Source of the DNA: a virus
Direction: 5' to 3' (one strand)
Virus record (IMG/VR): IMGVR_UViG_3300031555_001876
DNA length: 55,230 nucleotides
Shown here: one piece after another, positions 40,289 to 51,245 of the stretch
Layout: every line of letters starts with the position of its first letter
How positions within the stretch are numbered: position 1 is the first letter of the stretch
Notes under the pieces: generated by a model
The model's database searches: none
Seen by the model: the letters and a program-made list of their open reading frames with translations, nothing else
What the model was told of the DNA's origin: nothing
Program-made: the position numbers and the translations under genes

Positions 40289-41299
40289 GTGGAAAAATTA
40301 AAGCCTAATGATAGAGCAACTTTAGAAGGTATTTTTAGTCTTACTCAAAAAGGACTTTTAAATACTATGGAAAATTATTTGCGCAATAAGTATAAAAATG
40401 TTGTAAGAACTAAAAGATATTTATATGCGGTTGGCACTATTCCGATAGGATTGGTTGCGCATTGCGATACGGTTTTTCCAAGACCCGCAGAAGATGTTTA
40501 TTATGATAATGAAAAGAATGTAATGTGGAGTCCATATGGCTTGGGTGCTGATGATAGAGCAGGTGTATGGGCGATGATTAAAATTATTCGTTCTGGCTTA
40601 CGGCCGCATATTATTCTTACTACCGACGAAGAAAAAGGAGCAATCGGCGCAGAAGCATTGATTAAAAACTGCCCTACTCCTTTTGCTGATATGAAGTATC
40701 TTATTCAACTTGACCGCAGAGGCGCAAATGATTGTGTATTTTATGATTGCTATAATGCTGATTTCGTAGAATATGTTGAATCATTCGGTTTTTGTGAAGC
40801 ATATGGAAGTTTTAGTGATATTAGTATGATTTGCCCAAATTGGAAAGTAGCAGGAGTTAATCTGTCTATTGGATATATAGATGAACATAGTTATAGTGAA
40901 ACTTTGTTTATTGGGCATATGAATAATACCATTAATAAAGTTATTAGAATGTTAAAAGATGCTCATAATTCTAAATACTATGAATATATTGAAAATCCTT
41001 ATGTATATGATTGGTATAAAGATTATCTAATGAGAAATGCGGCACATATTAAACCTAATCCTAATTCTAAAGTAGTTTGTAGTAAATGCGGCCAACCTTA
41101 TGATGATTATGATTTATTCCCCGTAAAGTTGGCTGATGGTACTACTGGATATGCTTGTCCTAATTGTATTTCTATGTTTGTTTGGTGTGAAAGATGCGGC
41201 GAAGCATATGAATTGACAGAAAATAGTGTAAGTGATATTCTTTGTCAAGATTGTGCAGATATTCTATTTGGGAAGGAACCAGTAAAAGTAAATGTATAA
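40289..41299 (+). CDS. Metallopeptidase-like protein with M28/M42-type HxD and DDxxG motifs and three C-terminal zinc ribbons.
   Basis: Motifs VAHCDTVF and GLGADDRAGV. The C-terminus carries CSKCG...CPNC...CERCG...CQDC. Confidence 0.45.
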   Translation: MEKLKPNDRATLEGIFSLTQKGLLNTMENYLRNKYKNVVRTKRYLYAVGTIPIGLVAHCDTVFPRPAEDVYYDNEKNVMWSPYGLGADDRAGVWAMIKIIRSGLRPHIILTTDEEKGAIGAEALIKNCPTPFADMKYLIQLDRRGANDCVFYDCYNADFVEYVESFGFCEAYGSFSDISMICPNWKVAGVNLSIGYIDEHSYSETLFIGHMNNTINKVIRMLKDAHNSKYYEYIENPYVYDWYKDYLMRNAAHIKPNPNSKVVCSKCGQPYDDYDLFPVKLADGTTGYACPNCISMFVWCERCGEAYELTENSVSDILCQDCADILFGKEPVKVNV

Positions 41300-42746
41300 T
41301 ATTAATGAGATTAAAGAAGACTTTATTAAAGTAATTAAATATTCTCAAAATATCGCAAATCCAAAAGTGGATAAGTTGTTTGATAAATGGTATGAATCTA
41401 AAAAGTATTTTATTAAAGCAATGGGCGGAAATCTTTGGTGTGAAACAGATGAAATTTGCACTTTTTCACTTTCTGAAGAAGAACGTGCTTCTCGAGTTCA
41501 TAGTTTTATTGATATGCTTGAAGATGTTTATAATCATTATGATTTAGCAGAATTTATTTTAGATAATATTAAAACTTTCTTTTCTAATGAAGTATCTTGT
41601 TTGCCGCGTATATGTGAGAATGAATGGTATATAGAACACCCTGAAAATAATCCTTATAAAGATATTAAACTTGGGATGAAACTTATTAAAGCATTTAAAT
41701 TCTTTGAACAAGATAAAGTAGTGCTTGAAACCATCCAAAATGAAGCCAGTCGTCTTATCCAAGAGGATAAGATTGAAGGTAAATTGCGCGTTTCGGTTCA
41801 TCCGCTCGACTTCTTGAGCGCAAGTGAGAATACTTACAATTGGCGTTCTTGTCACGCACTTGATGGAGAATATAGAGCAGGTAATTTATCTTATATGTGC
41901 GACCGCAGTACTGTAATGGTATATCTTTGCACTGAAGATAAAAAGAAATTGCCTCGTTTTCCTGCGTCTGTTCCTTGGTATAGTAAAAAATGGAGAATGT
42001 TGCTTCATTTTAGTGATAATTGGGATATGATATTTGCGGGACGGCAATATCCTTTCTTTTCTATGACCATTCTTGACACTTTTACAAAAAAACTTTTCCC
42101 TAAAACAAAAATGTATGATGCTACAGAAGACAAAAGAACTTACTGGAGTAAATGGAGTAATTATTATGTAAAGTCTGTTGAAGATAATGTAGCAGATGAA
42201 ATTCACGATCTTGACCAAAGATATGTGCCGATTGCAGGTAAATTAATTGCTTTAAAAGATTTAGTAAGCGATGGAGTAAATTCTCGGCATTATAATGATA
42301 TTATTTATTCATCTTGTTATGTACCCTATTATATTAAGCGCAGAGCGCGCAATTGGGGCGATGAATATGATAATGTATTTTTGCCTGAATTGGCTTTTCA
42401 TATTGGAGAGTCAGTATATTGTTTGTGTTGTGAAGAAGAGAAAATTTTAGGTTATGGACAAATGGGATGTCCAAAATGTACTGAACAAGATCCATATGCA
42501 CGAGATATGGAACATTATGTAACTTGTACTTGCTGTGGGGCTACTATATGCCTTGAAGATGCTTATCGTGTAAATGGCGATGAATATGTTTGTTATAGAT
42601 GCAGAGATAAAAATGGTTATTGGTGTCCTAGGTGTAATAATTATTATTTACCTACTCATATGAAATTTAACATTACACGAAATAAAGCGTATTGTTTGAG
42701 TTGTAATGAAGATATTGGATATTTTTTTGATGATGAAGAGGAGTAA
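41292..42746 (+). CDS. Large hypothetical protein with C-terminal multi-zinc-ribbons. It is a paralogue of the gene at 36713..38334.
   Basis: See 36713..38334. Confidence 0.55.
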   Translation: MYNINEIKEDFIKVIKYSQNIANPKVDKLFDKWYESKKYFIKAMGGNLWCETDEICTFSLSEEERASRVHSFIDMLEDVYNHYDLAEFILDNIKTFFSNEVSCLPRICENEWYIEHPENNPYKDIKLGMKLIKAFKFFEQDKVVLETIQNEASRLIQEDKIEGKLRVSVHPLDFLSASENTYNWRSCHALDGEYRAGNLSYMCDRSTVMVYLCTEDKKKLPRFPASVPWYSKKWRMLLHFSDNWDMIFAGRQYPFFSMTILDTFTKKLFPKTKMYDATEDKRTYWSKWSNYYVKSVEDNVADEIHDLDQRYVPIAGKLIALKDLVSDGVNSRHYNDIIYSSCYVPYYIKRRARNWGDEYDNVFLPELAFHIGESVYCLCCEEEKILGYGQMGCPKCTEQDPYARDMEHYVTCTCCGATICLEDAYRVNGDEYVCYRCRDKNGYWCPRCNNYYLPTHMKFNITRNKAYCLSCNEDIGYFFDDEEE

Positions 42747-46238: not shown

Positions 46239-46330
46239 GGAGAGGTACCCAAGGGGTCATAAGGGGGCGGTCTACTAAACCGCTAGCCGGAACATCCCGG
46301 GCGTGGGTTCGAATCCCACCCTCTCCGCCA
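46239..46330 (+). tRNA. Type II (long-arm) tRNA with anticodon loop CTACTAA. The anticodon reads ACT, so the call is Ser-like but unusual.
   Basis: Acceptor pair ggagagg/cctctcc is perfect. Anticodon stem gcggt/accgc, a 19-nt variable arm, T-arm gtggg-ttcgaat-cccac, then g and CCA. Confidence 0.55.
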
Positions 46331-46592: not shown

Positions 46593-46832
46593 ATGAAATT
46601 TACTAACGCAAAGTAGATTCAAGATTTTCTCGAAGCAGTTAATCAATGTAATAGTGAAGTATATTTAATCAGTCCAGAAGGAGATAGATTTAATTTAAAA
46701 TCTTCTTTATCTCAATATGTTGCTATTGGAGCATTATTAGGTGAACGTGGCGATTATTTAGAATTATTCTGCAATGACAGAGTTGATGAATCTTACTTAA
46801 TGAAATTTTTATATGAACACCCAGAGGTTTAA
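46593..46832 (+). CDS. Small protein of 79 aa with one in-frame TAG. It lies immediately upstream of the poly-Cys / radical SAM cassette.
   Basis: Ribosome binding site AAAAGGAGAATATAAATG. TAG at 46614-46616. A perfect palindromic terminator gtttaattaattatcttaattaattaaac lies at 46827-46858. Confidence 0.45.
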
Positions 46833-46976
46833 TTAATTATCTTAATTAATTAAACCTTTTTTCTATTTTATTTGACTTTTCTCTTTTTTTATTGTATAAT
46901 TTAATTGGGTATAATTGTGTAATAATAAAAATTTTATCTTGAAGATATATAGAATTATAAATGAAGAGGTGAGCAA

Positions 46977-47687
46977 ATGGCTTGTATAGATGATGCTTGC
47001 GCTGCAAGTTGCACTGGCGATTGTTTTACTACTTGTACTGGCGGATGTAGTGGTGGATGTTATACTGGATGTACAGGATGCGGAGGTAACTGTACTGGTA
47101 CTTGTGAATCTGATTGCGCAAAAGGATGTTCTTCTACTTGTAGTCCTGCAGGTGCTTGTTATTCAAACTGTGCGGTAGACTGTCAAGGTACTTGTAAGGG
47201 TACTTGTGATGGAAGTTGTACTGGCGGCTGTGATGGTAGTTGTTCAGGTGATTGTTGGGGTACTTGTACTGGCACTTGTAGTGGAGGTTGTAAAGGCTCT
47301 TGTACTGGCTGTTCTGGTACTTGTAAGAGTACTTGCGCGACTGGGTGCGCAGTAGGTTGTTCTACGACCGCAAATATAGAAACGTTTAATCAATTAGACG
47401 CATTAAGTATTTCAATAAGTGACTTAATGTATGCAAGTGAAATAGAAATTATTGAAAAATCTGCATTAAATGAATTAAAGAGACGTAGTATTACTACTAA
47501 TAATACTGATTTAACTGTTAATGCAGGGGATGAAATTCTTCGAACTATATTAGAGTCTATCTATAATAAGTTAATTGATTTGAATTATAGTCCAAATGCT
47601 AATGATAATAATCAAGATGCTACAAAAGCAGATGAAATAAACAGATATATTACTTTTATAAAAACAAAATATCAAGAGGAAGTTTAA
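46977..47687 (+). CDS. Poly-Cys protein A of 236 aa. About 35 Cys sit in C-x3-C tandem repeats with spacers rich in T, G, S and D. The C-terminal domain of about 100 aa has no Cys.
   Basis: Promoter ttgact...tataat at 46872-46905 and ribosome binding site GAGGTGAG. The repeats include CTGDC FTTC TGGC SGGC YTGC.... Confidence 0.7.
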   Translation: MACIDDACAASCTGDCFTTCTGGCSGGCYTGCTGCGGNCTGTCESDCAKGCSSTCSPAGACYSNCAVDCQGTCKGTCDGSCTGGCDGSCSGDCWGTCTGTCSGGCKGSCTGCSGTCKSTCATGCAVGCSTTANIETFNQLDALSISISDLMYASEIEIIEKSALNELKRRSITTNNTDLTVNAGDEILRTILESIYNKLIDLNYSPNANDNNQDATKADEINRYITFIKTKYQEEV

Positions 47688-47690
47688 TTA

Positions 47691-48974
47691 ATGAAAAAAG
47701 GTCAAGAAAGTTATAGTGAATTTATTGGAAGAATTTATCCTGATTCTCAAATGGTAAAATCAGTTACATTACAGGTAACTGAAGATTGTAATTTATGTTG
47801 TACTTATTGTTATTAGATTAACAAAAAGAAAAATTCTATGTCATATGAAACTGCTATAAAGTTTATTGATTATATTTTAAAAGGTGATAGTGATTATTTA
47901 AACTTTGAAAATAGCGGTGGTTTTGTTTTAGACTTCATTGGTGGAGAACCTTTGTTGGAAGTTGATTTAATTTGTGATGTTTCTAAATATTTAATCGAGA
48001 AAATGATTAGAGAAAATCATCCTTGGTTGCATAAATTTAGAATTTTAGTAGGCTCAAACGGCACTTTATATTTTAATGAAAAATTCCAAAAATTATTAGA
48101 AACATATGGTAATTGGATAGTATATGATGTAACCATTGACGGCAATAAAGAATTGCACGATAGTTGTAGAGTATTTCCAGATGGCAGCGGCAGTTATGAT
48201 TTAGCAGTTGCGGCTATGAGAGATTATAGTCACGGTTTTAAGGATAGATTATCTTCTAAAATAACTTTAGCACCTGAAAATTTACCTCTTATGAATGAGG
48301 CATTGCGGCATTTTATTTCTCTTGGCTTTACTGATATTAATGCAAACTGCGTTTTTGAAGATGTTTGGTCTATTAAAGATGCTAAAATCTTTTATCAGCA
48401 ATTAAAAGAATTTGCTGATTATGTATTAGATAATGATTTAGATGAAAAAATTTATTGTTCTTTATTTAGAGAAGAGGCTTTTAGTCCTTATACTGGTAAT
48501 AATGATAACTGGTGTGGTGGCACGGGTAAAATGCTTGCTATGAACCATACTGGTAATTTATATCCTTGTTTAAGATATATGGAATCTTCTCTTGGTGATA
48601 GTGTAGAACCTATTATTATAGGTCATATTGATACTGGTATTGGTTCTAATGAAAAAGAACAAGAATGGATAAAAGGATTACAAGCAATTACTTATACAAG
48701 TCAATCTCCCGAAGAATGTTTAAATTGTCCAATTGCAGATGGATGCGCTTGGTGCTCTGCTTATAATTATCAAGTTTTTGGTGAAATAAATAAAAGAGCA
48801 ACTTTTATTTGTATAATGCATAAAGCAAGAGCATTAGGCAATTATTATTATTGGAATAAATATTATAAGAAATATAATAAAGAAGAAAGAAAAAAAGTTT
48901 ATATCCCTAAAGAATGGGCTTTAGAAATTATTTCTGAAGATGAATTTAATTATTTAATTGAATTATCAAAATAA
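47691..48974 (+). CDS. Radical SAM / SPASM-domain enzyme. It resembles an anSME or peptide-maturase-like thioether- or crosslink-forming rSAM.
   Basis: CNLCCTYC is a CxxxCxxC motif, followed by the GGEPLL SAM-binding motif. The C-terminal segment CLNCPIADGCAWCSAYNY is a Cys-rich auxiliary-cluster region. ATG 47691 follows AGAGGAAG. An in-frame TAG at 47814-47816 lies right after the CxxxCxxC-Y. Confidence 0.75.
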
Positions 48975-48990
48975 TAATTAAAAAAGGAGG

Positions 48991-49758
48991 TTGGAAAATA
49001 TGGCAAACGGTAATAATTGTATAGATGATGTTTGTACTACCAGTTGTGTTGGTGATTGTTTTACTACTTGTACTGGTGCATGCAGTAGTGGTAATGTATG
49101 TAAAGGCGGATGTACTGGTGGATGTTATAAAACTTGTACTGGTGGATGCGGTGGCGGATGCGGTAATGATTGCACAGATACTTGTAATGATACTTGTAAT
49201 ACAACTTGTGTGAAAACTTGTGCTGATGATTGTACTGGTGGATGCAAAGAAACTTGTACTGGCGGATGTGATAATACTTGTAGTAGTTGTTCTTATGGTT
49301 GTGCTTCTGATTGTTACGCTTATTGTGTGGACTATTGTAATAATAGTTGTAGTGGAGGATGTAAAGAAGGTTGTAGAACAGTTTGTTCAAATGCTTGTAA
49401 AGATGATTGTGGAGCCGCTTGTAAATCAAGTAATCAAGAAACCTTATTAGTAACACCAGTTACTAATTTAAGAAATAACTTAAAAATTGGTGCAATAGTT
49501 CACGCAGATGAATTAGATTTAATAGAACAAGCCCTTATATTTGAATTAGAACGCAGAAACTTAACTTCAACTACAGGAGATACGCAATTAAGTAGAGATA
49601 CTGCGGTTTTAGCAAATATAATCAAATCACTTCACGAAAAAAGTGAAAAAGCATCCTATAACAAAGATAGTAACCAATTCTTAATAGATGATGATGAATT
49701 AGTAGGCTATATTGACTATGTTATAACATTATTTGGTCAATATGTACAACAATCTTAA
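48991..49758 (+). CDS. Poly-Cys protein B of 255 aa. It is a paralogue of protein A, with about 45 Cys in C-x3-C repeats and a Cys-free C-terminal domain.
   Basis: Ribosome binding site AAAAGGAGG. The repeats include CTTSC VGDC FTTC TGAC.... Confidence 0.7.
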   Translation: MENMANGNNCIDDVCTTSCVGDCFTTCTGACSSGNVCKGGCTGGCYKTCTGGCGGGCGNDCTDTCNDTCNTTCVKTCADDCTGGCKETCTGGCDNTCSSCSYGCASDCYAYCVDYCNNSCSGGCKEGCRTVCSNACKDDCGAACKSSNQETLLVTPVTNLRNNLKIGAIVHADELDLIEQALIFELERRNLTSTTGDTQLSRDTAVLANIIKSLHEKSEKASYNKDSNQFLIDDDELVGYIDYVITLFGQYVQQS

Positions 49759-49962
49759 TTTGATTTTTTTTAAAAAAAATGATATAATATATTTACAAAG
49801 TTAAGGAAAAGAAAAATTAATTTTTCTTTTCCTTAACAGAAGAAAATTTGATTTTTTAAAAAAAATATGATATAATATATTTACAAAGTTAAAGACTCAA
49901 ACAGCAATTTTATTAAACATCTGAAATGGGTTCTGATAAATTTTAAGGAGTCTTGTTAATAT

Positions 49963-50036
49963 AGAGGATGTAGTGTAATGGCAACACGCCACATTTGGGA
50001 TGTGGAATCGCGGTTCAAATCCGACATCTTCTACCA
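49963..50036 (+). tRNA. tRNA-Pro (TGG).
   Basis: Acceptor pair agaggat/atcttct, anticodon stem ccaca/tgtgg with loop tttggga, T-loop ttcaaat, and CCA. Confidence 0.55.
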
Positions 50037-50039
50037 TAT

Positions 50040-50116
50040 GCGGGATTGGCGCAGCAGGTAGCGCATCTGACTTACATTCAGGAGGCTCATAGGTTCAAAT
50101 CCTATATCCCGCACCA
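50040..50116 (+). tRNA. tRNA-Val (TAC).
   Basis: Acceptor pair gcgggat/atcccgc, D-stem gcgc/gcgc, anticodon stem tctga/tcagg with loop cttacat, T-arm atagg-ttcaaat-cctat, then a and CCA. Confidence 0.7.
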
Positions 50117-50283
50117 AAGTTTCTTCATAAATCGCTCCAAAGACACATACAGCAAATTTTGTTTAGTAAAACAATGTGTTATAGGTTCGAGTCCTATCTT
50201 GTGAGTATTTTGCGAGTCGACCAATTGGTAGGTCAATTGTCTAAAATGTGTCTTGTAATTTTCCCTTCGTTCAAATTAAATAT

Positions 50284-50359
50284 TGGGGATTGGTGTAATT
50301 GGTAGTCACATTTGACTTTGACTCAAACAGCGTAGGTTCGAATCCTGCATCCCCAGCCA
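50284..50359 (+). tRNA. tRNA-Gln (TTG).
   Basis: Acceptor pair tggggat/atcccca (U1-A72), anticodon stem tttga/tcaaa with loop ctttgac, T-arm gtagg-ttcgaat-cctgc, then g and CCA. Confidence 0.7.
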
Positions 50360-50461
50360 CGCCAGTGAAGAGTGAACAAATGTAGGCACACTGGGGTATC
50401 AATAAAAGGCGGTATGTGTGGTTAAAGAGGGCAGACCTTAATGCAACCTCATTTTTAATAT

Positions 50462-50549
50462 GCCGCTGTGGTGGAACAGGTAGACACCACAGACTTAAAA
50501 TCTGTTGCTCTTTTTGGGCGTGCCGGTTCGAGTCCGGCCAGCGGCACCA
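50462..50549 (+). tRNA. tRNA-Leu (TAA), type II.
   Basis: Acceptor pair gccgctg/cagcggc, anticodon stem acaga/tctgt with loop cttaaaa, a long variable arm, T-arm gccgg-ttcgagt-ccggc, then a and CCA. Confidence 0.7.
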
Positions 50550-50675
50550 TATGATTAAAATCAACTAACATTTTGTTAGTTGATTTTTTTTATTTGTTTG
50601 GACCGACCGGCAACAAACGCAAGAATCGAAAACCCAAATCAAAAAATCGATTTAGAAATTTTAAGGAGGATTTAT

Positions 50676-51245
50676 ATGTCATATCAATTAACGCGTAATA
50701 CTCTATCTCGATATCTAAATACTGATACATTGAAAATCCAAGAGTGTAAAGAAATAGAAAATTTTCAACCTTTGTTACAAAAGAACTATGGAGAAGATTA
50801 TGATTGCTCATTGGTTTCAATTACTATGATAATTAATAACTATCGAAAAGAATTAGTTCCTTTAGATATTTATAAAAAAGTAGAAAAGATTGCTAAAAAT
50901 TATTTTTATAATGGAAAAGTATTTGGTACTTTACCTTTCTTTATAAAAAGCATTTTTGATAGAACTTTAAAAGAATATAAAATATATAAAACCACAAAAG
51001 CAAAATATTTAAAAGATTGCGGTTTTACCTATAATTTAATAAAGGAAAACATAAAAGCGCAAAAGCCTATGATTTTATCTATGTGGAATGATGGCCGCAA
51101 CTATTATAAGAATCATAGTGTAGTAATTATTGGATATGCTATAATAAATAATAAAAAGTTTTTAATAGTATTTGATAATTGGAGTCGTGAAAAGGCTTAT
51201 ATTGATTACTCAAAATTAAATAAAATGAGTTGCTTAAACTATTAA
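50676..51245 (+). CDS. Papain-like cysteine peptidase, C39-like or CHAP-like.
   Basis: Cys motif EDYDCSLVSITMII and downstream His motif NHSVVIIGY. Ribosome binding site AGGAGGATTTATATG. Confidence 0.45.
   Translation: MSYQLTRNTLSRYLNTDTLKIQECKEIENFQPLLQKNYGEDYDCSLVSITMIINNYRKELVPLDIYKKVEKIAKNYFYNGKVFGTLPFFIKSIFDRTLKEYKIYKTTKAKYLKDCGFTYNLIKENIKAQKPMILSMWNDGRNYYKNHSVVIIGYAIINNKKFLIVFDNWSREKAYIDYSKLNKMSCLNY

Follow-up and report, generated by a model that had tools for sequence, protein, structure and literature searches.

A phage-borne CXXX-repeat radical SAM maturase–target cassette and its possible role in cross-linking cysteine-rich phage proteins

The radical S-adenosylmethionine (SAM) enzyme QhpD, which carries a SPASM domain, cross-links Cys to Asp or Glu in a real protein subunit, QhpC, before export and is a precedent for protein substrates, although QhpC (the small gamma subunit of quinohemoprotein amine dehydrogenase) receives only three or four links. 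CteB makes a Cys-to-Thr thioether in SCIFF, a peptide of 45 residues, and PapB installs six thioethers in repeated CXXXD motifs (PMC12373016). A further pairing, the CXXX-repeat radical SAM target system (the maturase family TIGR04115 with the target repeat TIGR04114/PF27846, and TIGR04117 paralogues), is as far as we found defined only in silico and biochemically unexplored; a literature search found no experimental paper on the TIGR04115/TIGR04114 family. Here we analyse a cassette on the + strand of IMG/VR virus record IMGVR_UViG_3300031555_001876, a stretch of 55,230 nucleotides (the window, at its full length), in which a radical SAM–SPASM enzyme lies between two proteins with long CXXX repeats, polyCys-1 and polyCys-2. 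An initial annotation made from the letters alone had stated that no described system matches; the pair instead corresponds to the curated TIGR04115 maturase and TIGR04114/PF27846 target repeat, and the cassette almost certainly belongs to that system.

The enzyme (427 amino acids (aa); 47691..48974, + strand) scores 436.2 bits against TIGR04115, an equivalog-domain model with a cut-off of 350, with residues 23–387 aligned to positions 2–359 of the 359 in the model, and it also matches phrog_1802. Its motif set is complete, with the cysteines for the SAM cluster and for both auxiliary clusters: the SAM-cluster CX3CX2C (C33, C37 and C40), GGEP (residues 84–87) and all seven SPASM cysteines (C275-X12-G-X4-C293, C343-X2-C346-X5-C352-X2-C355 and C374) are present and invariant in 16 homologues. 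The next NCBIfam matches all fall under their own cut-offs, with PapB second best at 172 bits (cut-off 340), followed by the SCIFF maturase at 111 (cut-off 425), CcpM at 106 and QhpD at 100 (cut-off 453); the RumMC model gives 53 bits against a cut-off of 720, and the anaerobic sulfatase maturase and cyclophane-forming maturase models give at most 49. Among solved structures, CteB comes closest (5wgg, E = 1.9e-22, aligned over residues 5–380). By its sequence, and in agreement with the initial annotation, which had placed an enzyme with a SPASM-like cysteine cluster between the two cysteine-rich proteins, it is therefore a peptide- or protein-modifying radical SAM–SPASM maturase and not a housekeeping enzyme.

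PolyCys-1 (236 aa; 46977..47687, + strand) has its CXXX repeat in residues 3–128 and a Cys-free four-helix domain in residues ~130–236; polyCys-2 (252 aa; 49000..49758, + strand) likewise has a repeat, after which comes a Cys-free domain of ~110 aa. The two are paralogues (35% identity over their full length, E = 2e-37). Both exceed the cut-off of 20 bits for the TIGR04114 repeat model, with 23.1 bits for polyCys-1 and 29.8 bits for polyCys-2, and polyCys-1 matches phrog_6085. Hidden Markov model searches had been proposed in the initial annotation; they thus placed the enzyme in TIGR04115, both targets in TIGR04114 and a peptidase further downstream in Peptidase_C39_2. PF27846 (tSAM_targ_Cxxx_rpt), which is newer than the Pfam release used on the window proteins, is annotated on relatives, and the Joint Genome Institute (JGI) names relatives ‘radical SAM peptide maturase (CXXX-repeat target family)’ and ‘modification target Cys-rich repeat protein’.

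The periodicity of the repeats is real. Successive cysteines are four residues apart in 27 of 31 pairs in polyCys-1 (32 Cys) and in 30 of 33 pairs in polyCys-2 (34 Cys), and none of 10,000 shuffles of the Cys-rich segment reached the observed count for either protein. The earlier estimate of about 35–45 Cys was slightly high, the period of four was right, and the Cys-free C-terminal domain then put at about 100 aa measures ~108–111 aa in both proteins. The start of polyCys-2, previously placed at TTG 48991, moves to ATG 49000, which lies 8 nt past AAGGAGG. Positions between the cysteines hold small residues (Ser, Thr, Gly, Ala, Asp or Asn), with mostly Thr, Ser, Ala or Lys at x1, Gly in 44% of cases at x2 and mostly Thr, Gly or Asp at x3; none of the three is fixed, either in the window or in ~5,200 units from related loci. 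Gaps of only 3 nt and 25 nt separate the enzyme from polyCys-1 and polyCys-2, respectively, and the two proteins are its expected substrates.

Compared with the described systems, the locus agrees with the CXXX-repeat family in the cut-offs passed and in gene adjacency. It differs in that the Cys-free domain is at the C terminus, two targets flank the enzyme, a gene for a 79-aa protein accompanies them and TAG is recoded. PapB/PapA (freyrasin, a ranthipeptide) is alike in its radical SAM–SPASM enzyme, in making one thioether per repeated Cys motif and in the four-residue spacing (CXXXD). However, PapA, a short peptide, carries six motifs with an Asp or Glu acceptor at i + 4, whereas in the window i + 4 is the next Cys, each protein has 27–30 units and the acceptor residue is not fixed; with the PapB cut-off missed, precursors of 236–252 aa that bear a C-terminal domain and no Asp/Glu rule, the locus does not classify as a ranthipeptide cluster. 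The entire radical SAM and SPASM core of CteB aligns with the window enzyme, but CteB has a ~80-residue N-terminal leader-binding domain that the window enzyme lacks: its alignments to CteB-type families begin at about position 80. Without such a leader-recognition (RiPP recognition element, RRE; RiPP, ribosomally synthesised and post-translationally modified peptide) domain, and well below the SCIFF cut-off, it is not a sactipeptide or SCIFF maturase. QhpD-type function is also disfavoured, as the QhpD cut-off is missed and no dehydrogenase genes were found near the cassette.

Portal and terminase genes (1226..2845 and 3220..4968, both on the − strand) establish that the window is of phage origin, and each contains seven in-frame TAG codons. 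Many of the longer genes in the window stay open only with TAG as a sense codon, read as Gln; several metabolic genes on the + strand have no in-frame TAG, and the stop codon is TAA in all genes checked. The enzyme gene is itself open only if TAG 47814..47816 is sense, and at this codon, Gln42, all of the 16 homologues have Gln (motif CxxxCxxCYQ). No CUA anticodon occurs in any of the 14 tRNAs of the window, so the suppressor tRNA must be elsewhere in the genome.

The family is large. Public data contain no fewer than 7,999 homologues of the enzyme at E < 1e-20. IMG/VR holds 190 relatives, and we analysed the loci of the best 80 of these (13 lineages at 80% identity) together with 74 bacterial loci, one genome per species (71 of at least 4 kb), for a total of 154. 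The co-occurrence of repeat and enzyme that the initial annotation had suggested looking for is pervasive: CXXX open reading frames (ORFs) lie on the strand of the enzyme in 77 of the 80 viral loci and in all 13 lineages, and one stands beside the enzyme in 64 of the 71 bacterial loci. Bacterial carriers are nearly all strict anaerobes (Oscillospiraceae, Lachnospiraceae and other Clostridia, with a few Treponemataceae, Coriobacteriia and Mollicutes), and many of their loci carry baseplate genes, which identifies those loci as prophages. Gut and faecal samples are the main source of the relatives. An identical but incomplete copy of the window enzyme is present on a 185.5-kb JGI contig. Searches of GenBank phage proteins returned two uncultured gut phages with enzymes of ~36% identity and distant enzymes (~25%) in Erwinia and Salmonella jumbo phages, and zero matches for polyCys-1; at the DNA level, the window matched GenBank phages only in tRNAs.

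An Oscillospiraceae locus (L131, 8001..9701; P0030) encodes a 569-aa TIGR04115-type enzyme that is apparently interrupted by an intein, with Pfam Hint/intein domains. One 230-kb viral contig (L029/L033; 5660..9377 and 13504..15840) has two modules of radical SAM enzyme and CXXX protein, the second with an enzyme of only 405 aa and its own 361-aa target. At one locus (L070, 198..9353), five consecutive CXXX proteins, the largest of 968 aa with 104 Cys, precede a 653-aa enzyme with an extra N-terminal part. A helical protein of ~109 aa with a C-terminal CxC is encoded ~335 nt upstream of the enzyme (L003–L082) in 77 of the 80 viral loci; it has no PHROG or NCBIfam match (Pfam was not searched) and is a candidate for a third system component, although the window lacks it.

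In the wider family, gene context connects the module with tail genes. In no fewer than 10 of the 13 viral lineages, it is flanked by baseplate, tail-collar, tail or tail-fibre genes; in the prophage-type lineages it follows genes for a baseplate wedge, baseplate J and a further baseplate protein and a tail-collar-fibre gene, and it precedes tail-fibre-like genes or an endolysin. The targets have five architectures: (a) a ~100-aa Cys-free N-terminal domain, the motif CRGxCxGLC and repeats; (b) repeats alone, with up to 64 Cys in 262 aa; (c) ~220 aa of repeats with two ALK_LTK_GRD glycine-rich domains of receptor-binding type (806–831 aa, 326 bits); (d) a 968-aa protein of repeat, domain, repeat and a 400-aa C-terminal part; and (e) a 920-aa protein of repeats and peptidoglycan-binding-type repeats. 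One type (c) fusion (locus L071) lies between tail-fibre genes and an endolysin, beside an 888-aa paralogue with three glycine-rich domains and no repeat. This comparison implies that in the fusion the repeat replaces the N-terminal part, that is, a stalk.

Exported proteins thus carry the CXXX repeat as a portable module. Tat-type (twin-arginine translocation) signals in some bacterial relatives fit export after folding or cross-linking. Taken together, the context, architectures and signals of the relatives suggest that the repeat is a structural module in exposed proteins and not a small peptide that diffuses away. Loci L158 (10017..12776) and L002 (2219..2743) and the proteins P0152 and P0227 comprise CXXX proteins with peptidoglycan-binding-type repeats (920 aa) and bacterial proteins with a Tat-type signal (SRREFFK) and an OB-like middle domain.

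Our best overall explanation, to which we assign a probability of about 0.5, is a phage-borne CXXX system that produces a thioether-stapled rod and in which the downstream peptidase has no part. PolyCys-1, the enzyme, polyCys-2 and probably the 79-aa gene would form one maturase and target unit. The enzyme would be active in the cytoplasm of an anaerobic host and, using three [4Fe-4S] clusters and hydrogen-atom abstraction, would join Cys sulfurs to carbons of nearby residues, so that the repeat would come to hold many thioether bridges. A stiff rod resistant to proteases and to reduction would result, suited to phages that assemble in strict anaerobes and are released from them, where it would replace disulfides without any need for oxygen. 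The repeat would form the stalk of tail-fibre-type proteins in related phages; in the window targets, the four-helix domain stands in place of a receptor-binding domain and could provide for their docking or oligomerisation, either on the virion or on the enzyme. The requirement of the enzyme for TAG suppression, which it shares with the portal and terminase genes, counts in favour of this explanation. We lean towards thioether chemistry by analogy with the nearest studied enzymes (PapB acting on repeated CXXXD, CteB on SCIFF and QhpD on QhpC), whereas a virion-structural role for the two window proteins is proposed only tentatively. More doubtful still is the general proposition that CXXX repeats are a new viral structural element, in which fibre or stalk segments would receive tens of thioethers per chain from a phage radical SAM enzyme.

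Reinforcement of phage parts by special chemistry has precedents in the tip of T4 gp37, where His-x-His motifs bind iron, and in the isopeptide chainmail of the HK97 capsid. The idea of metal or covalent reinforcement is shared, but those examples use other residues and other chemistry, have no sequence relationship to the proteins described here and involve no dedicated radical SAM-type enzyme.

The sub-family to which the window belongs is narrower. Proteins with the repeat followed by the C-terminal domain are represented by 11 sequences at 50% clustering in an exhaustive profile search and by 137 matches in a word-indexed search with the full-length protein; the same word-indexed search with the C-terminal domain alone gave zero matches. 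The closest loci (L084–L087) are also TAG-recoded and have the order 79-aa homologue, 149-aa helical protein, CXXX protein with the C-terminal domain, radical SAM enzyme and family 2 (GT2) glycosyltransferase. On three other large-phage contigs, the module lies amid Band_7, PhoH, lysozyme, gyrase, PemK and NrdD genes. In L084, the glycosyltransferase (6516..7493) directly follows the enzyme and hints that the modified protein may also be glycosylated; the window cassette has no such gene.

These loci bear on the first gene of the cassette, a 79-aa protein (46593..46832, + strand) with a ribosome-binding site and an ATG start, which the initial annotation had correctly placed upstream at 46593 and which requires read-through of an in-frame TAG at codon 8. 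L084–L086 encode a homologue, 61% identical and also of 79 aa, two genes ahead of the CXXX protein and the enzyme, with TAG at the same codon (46614..46616 in the window, 3657..3659 in L084); a conserved TAG so near the gene start could gate translation of the protein. The 79-aa protein has no Pfam, NCBIfam or PHROG match. None of the wider-family loci, 80 viral and 74 bacterial, contains it, and it is probably the product of an accessory gene of the window sub-family. It has no similarity to the ~109-aa upstream protein, and the two were rejected as equivalents; nor did hhalign find anything when the C-terminal domain of the window targets was compared with the ~109-aa protein.

Several observations weigh against the proposed stapled, virion-associated rod. 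The closest relatives with the same architecture have the module among non-structural genes and not among tail genes, which is our main reason for caution over a virion role of the two window proteins, and in the window itself tRNAs and the peptidase gene part the module from the tail-fibre genes. Neither Pfam nor PHROG scans found a receptor-binding or known virion domain in polyCys-1 or polyCys-2. AlphaFold2, run on polyCys-1 with a 45-sequence alignment, predicts four helices in the C-terminal domain (predicted local distance difference test (pLDDT) 70–93) and no confident fold in the repeat (pLDDT 36–56); a run without an alignment was uninformative (pLDDT 39), and fold searches with the four-helix domain gave no informative structural neighbour. 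Between this domain and the N-terminal domain of type (a) targets, hhalign gave a probability of 23% over 28 residues, a single helix (ELxRR), and we do not claim homology, which is unproven. As for the proposed chemistry, the small spacer residues include no fixed acceptor; Asp occupies x3 in 16% of units in the window and in 4–8% across the family, so that a PapB-type Cys-to-Asp link is not a general rule. The suggestion of a hyper-crosslinked virion or tail protein, made in the initial annotation, is thus supported by related phage loci and weakened by the position of the module in the closest relatives.

The same gene context raises the possibility that, in large lytic phages, the modified CXXX and four-helix protein is an intracellular effector outside the virion, with roles such as host takeover, anti-defence or redox and thiol buffering, and that fibre use is confined to prophage-type relatives. 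The early or auxiliary genes around the module of the closest relatives (PemK, PhoH, Band_7, NrdD and the glycosyltransferase) and the lack of a virion-type domain in the window proteins are consistent with such a role. Yet tail-fibre genes follow the module in the window, elsewhere the repeat, with an enzyme of the same family, is clearly part of fibre proteins, and no known defence or anti-defence family was recognised, the PADLOC library not having been searched. We consider an effector role unlikely.

A repeat that is 25% Cys with Gly, Ser and Thr spacers could also bind metal or iron–sulfur clusters through free thiols, either as a metallothionein-like protein or as a metal-stapled fibre, with the radical SAM enzyme acting elsewhere or at few sites. 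Tat-type signals on some bacterial relatives would suit this, being typical of proteins exported in a folded or cofactor-loaded state. Metal binding would, however, leave the near-obligate linkage to a protein-modifying radical SAM–SPASM enzyme unexplained, and Pfam and NCBIfam scans of the polyCys proteins gave no match to a metallothionein or ferredoxin family, which makes free-thiol metal binding decidedly unlikely. Very unlikely, too, is a different reaction on the repeats, such as oxidation of Cys to formylglycine, epimerisation or carbon–carbon linkage. Anaerobic sulfatase maturases and cyclophane-forming maturases are detectable relatives of the enzyme and no acceptor residue is conserved, but those families score no more than 49 bits compared with 100–172 bits for the thioether formers, and the substrates have neither the sulfatase motif C/S-x-P/A-x-R nor the aromatic residues needed for cyclophanes.

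The initial annotation had read the locus as precursor, radical SAM enzyme, precursor and protease. A papain-like peptidase gene does follow the second tRNA array (189 aa; ATG 50676..51245, + strand), and its product passes the Pfam Peptidase_C39_2 cut-off (34.1 bits against 24) and falls short of Peptidase_C39 (PF03412; 16.8 bits against 22). Its membership in the cassette did not survive. A tblastn search of the related loci (80 viral, 74 bacterial) gave no relative of it and none was found in GenBank phages, none is annotated in the four closest-relative loci, and four tRNAs and a terminator-like hairpin separate it from the cassette. The layout with a protease is therefore not a conserved unit; we rejected the peptidase as a member, and it is probably not part of the system. 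It does not qualify as a bacteriocin-processing C39 enzyme either, given that there is no transporter in this region of the window and that both polyCys sequences lack a double-glycine leader. The least probable alternative, that the CXXX proteins are RiPP-like toxins, bacteriocins or signals, secreted or released on lysis, with the Cys-free domain as follower or leader and the C39-like peptidase freeing the core, draws on the position of the enzyme in the peptide-maturase branch of radical SAM–SPASM proteins, on the C39_2-type peptidase 0.9 kb downstream and on the export signals of some bacterial CXXX proteins, but is highly improbable given a peptidase in a separate transcription unit without relatives in these loci, the lack of any conserved transporter or immunity gene among the related loci, targets of 150–970 aa that are fused to large structural domains and lack the double-glycine leader, and an enzyme without the CteB-type leader-recognition domain.

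If the enzyme does staple fibre proteins, this would be a new post-translational chemistry in virion assembly, and would account for the stability of exposed proteins in phages of anaerobes, where disulfides are not used. A virion protein would then for the first time be cross-linked by enzyme-installed thioethers, no larger substrate of a RiPP-type maturase would be known, and an enzyme able to act at dozens of sites in proteins of full size would be attractive for protein engineering. To our knowledge, neither the tail-fibre-module setting of the family in phages nor its fusions to fibre domains have been described, abundant as the system is. Because related loci occur in cultured lysogens (Neglectibacter timonensis SN17, Eubacterium pyruvativorans i6, Desnuesiella massiliensis mt10 and Anaerobacterium chartisolvens DSM 27016), the question is directly testable.

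On the + strand, the cassette region reads 79-aa ORF, polyCys-1, radical SAM enzyme, polyCys-2, four tRNAs (49963..50549), the peptidase gene and three tail-fibre-like genes (from 51267, 51676 and 52968). A ten-tRNA array lies upstream, so that tRNA arrays border the cassette on either side. Its setting in a recoded phage, between tRNA arrays and ahead of a tail-fibre module, is thus as first annotated. An AT-rich inverted repeat followed by a T-run (46823–46866) precedes a promoter-like site, TTGACT-17-TATAAT (46872..46900, + strand), upstream of polyCys-1. The site matches at 11 of 12 positions and is the best in the region, but such sites are no more numerous there than expected by chance and it is therefore weak evidence. 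Within the upstream array, ARAGORN predicts a 92-nt tRNA-Ser with the unusual anticodon ACT (46239..46330).

Elsewhere in the window, two large proteins, of 543 aa (36697..38334) and 484 aa (41292..42746), are alike in layout and have C-terminal clusters of CxxC pairs; the 543-aa protein has no PHROG match. Two paralogous ribose-phosphate pyrophosphokinase-like genes (phrog_619; 34155..35135 and 35734..36621) stand close together near a nucleotidyltransferase gene (32368..33228) and a GIY-YIG-like gene (33213..33959), in what looks like an auxiliary block for nucleotide and NAD metabolism.

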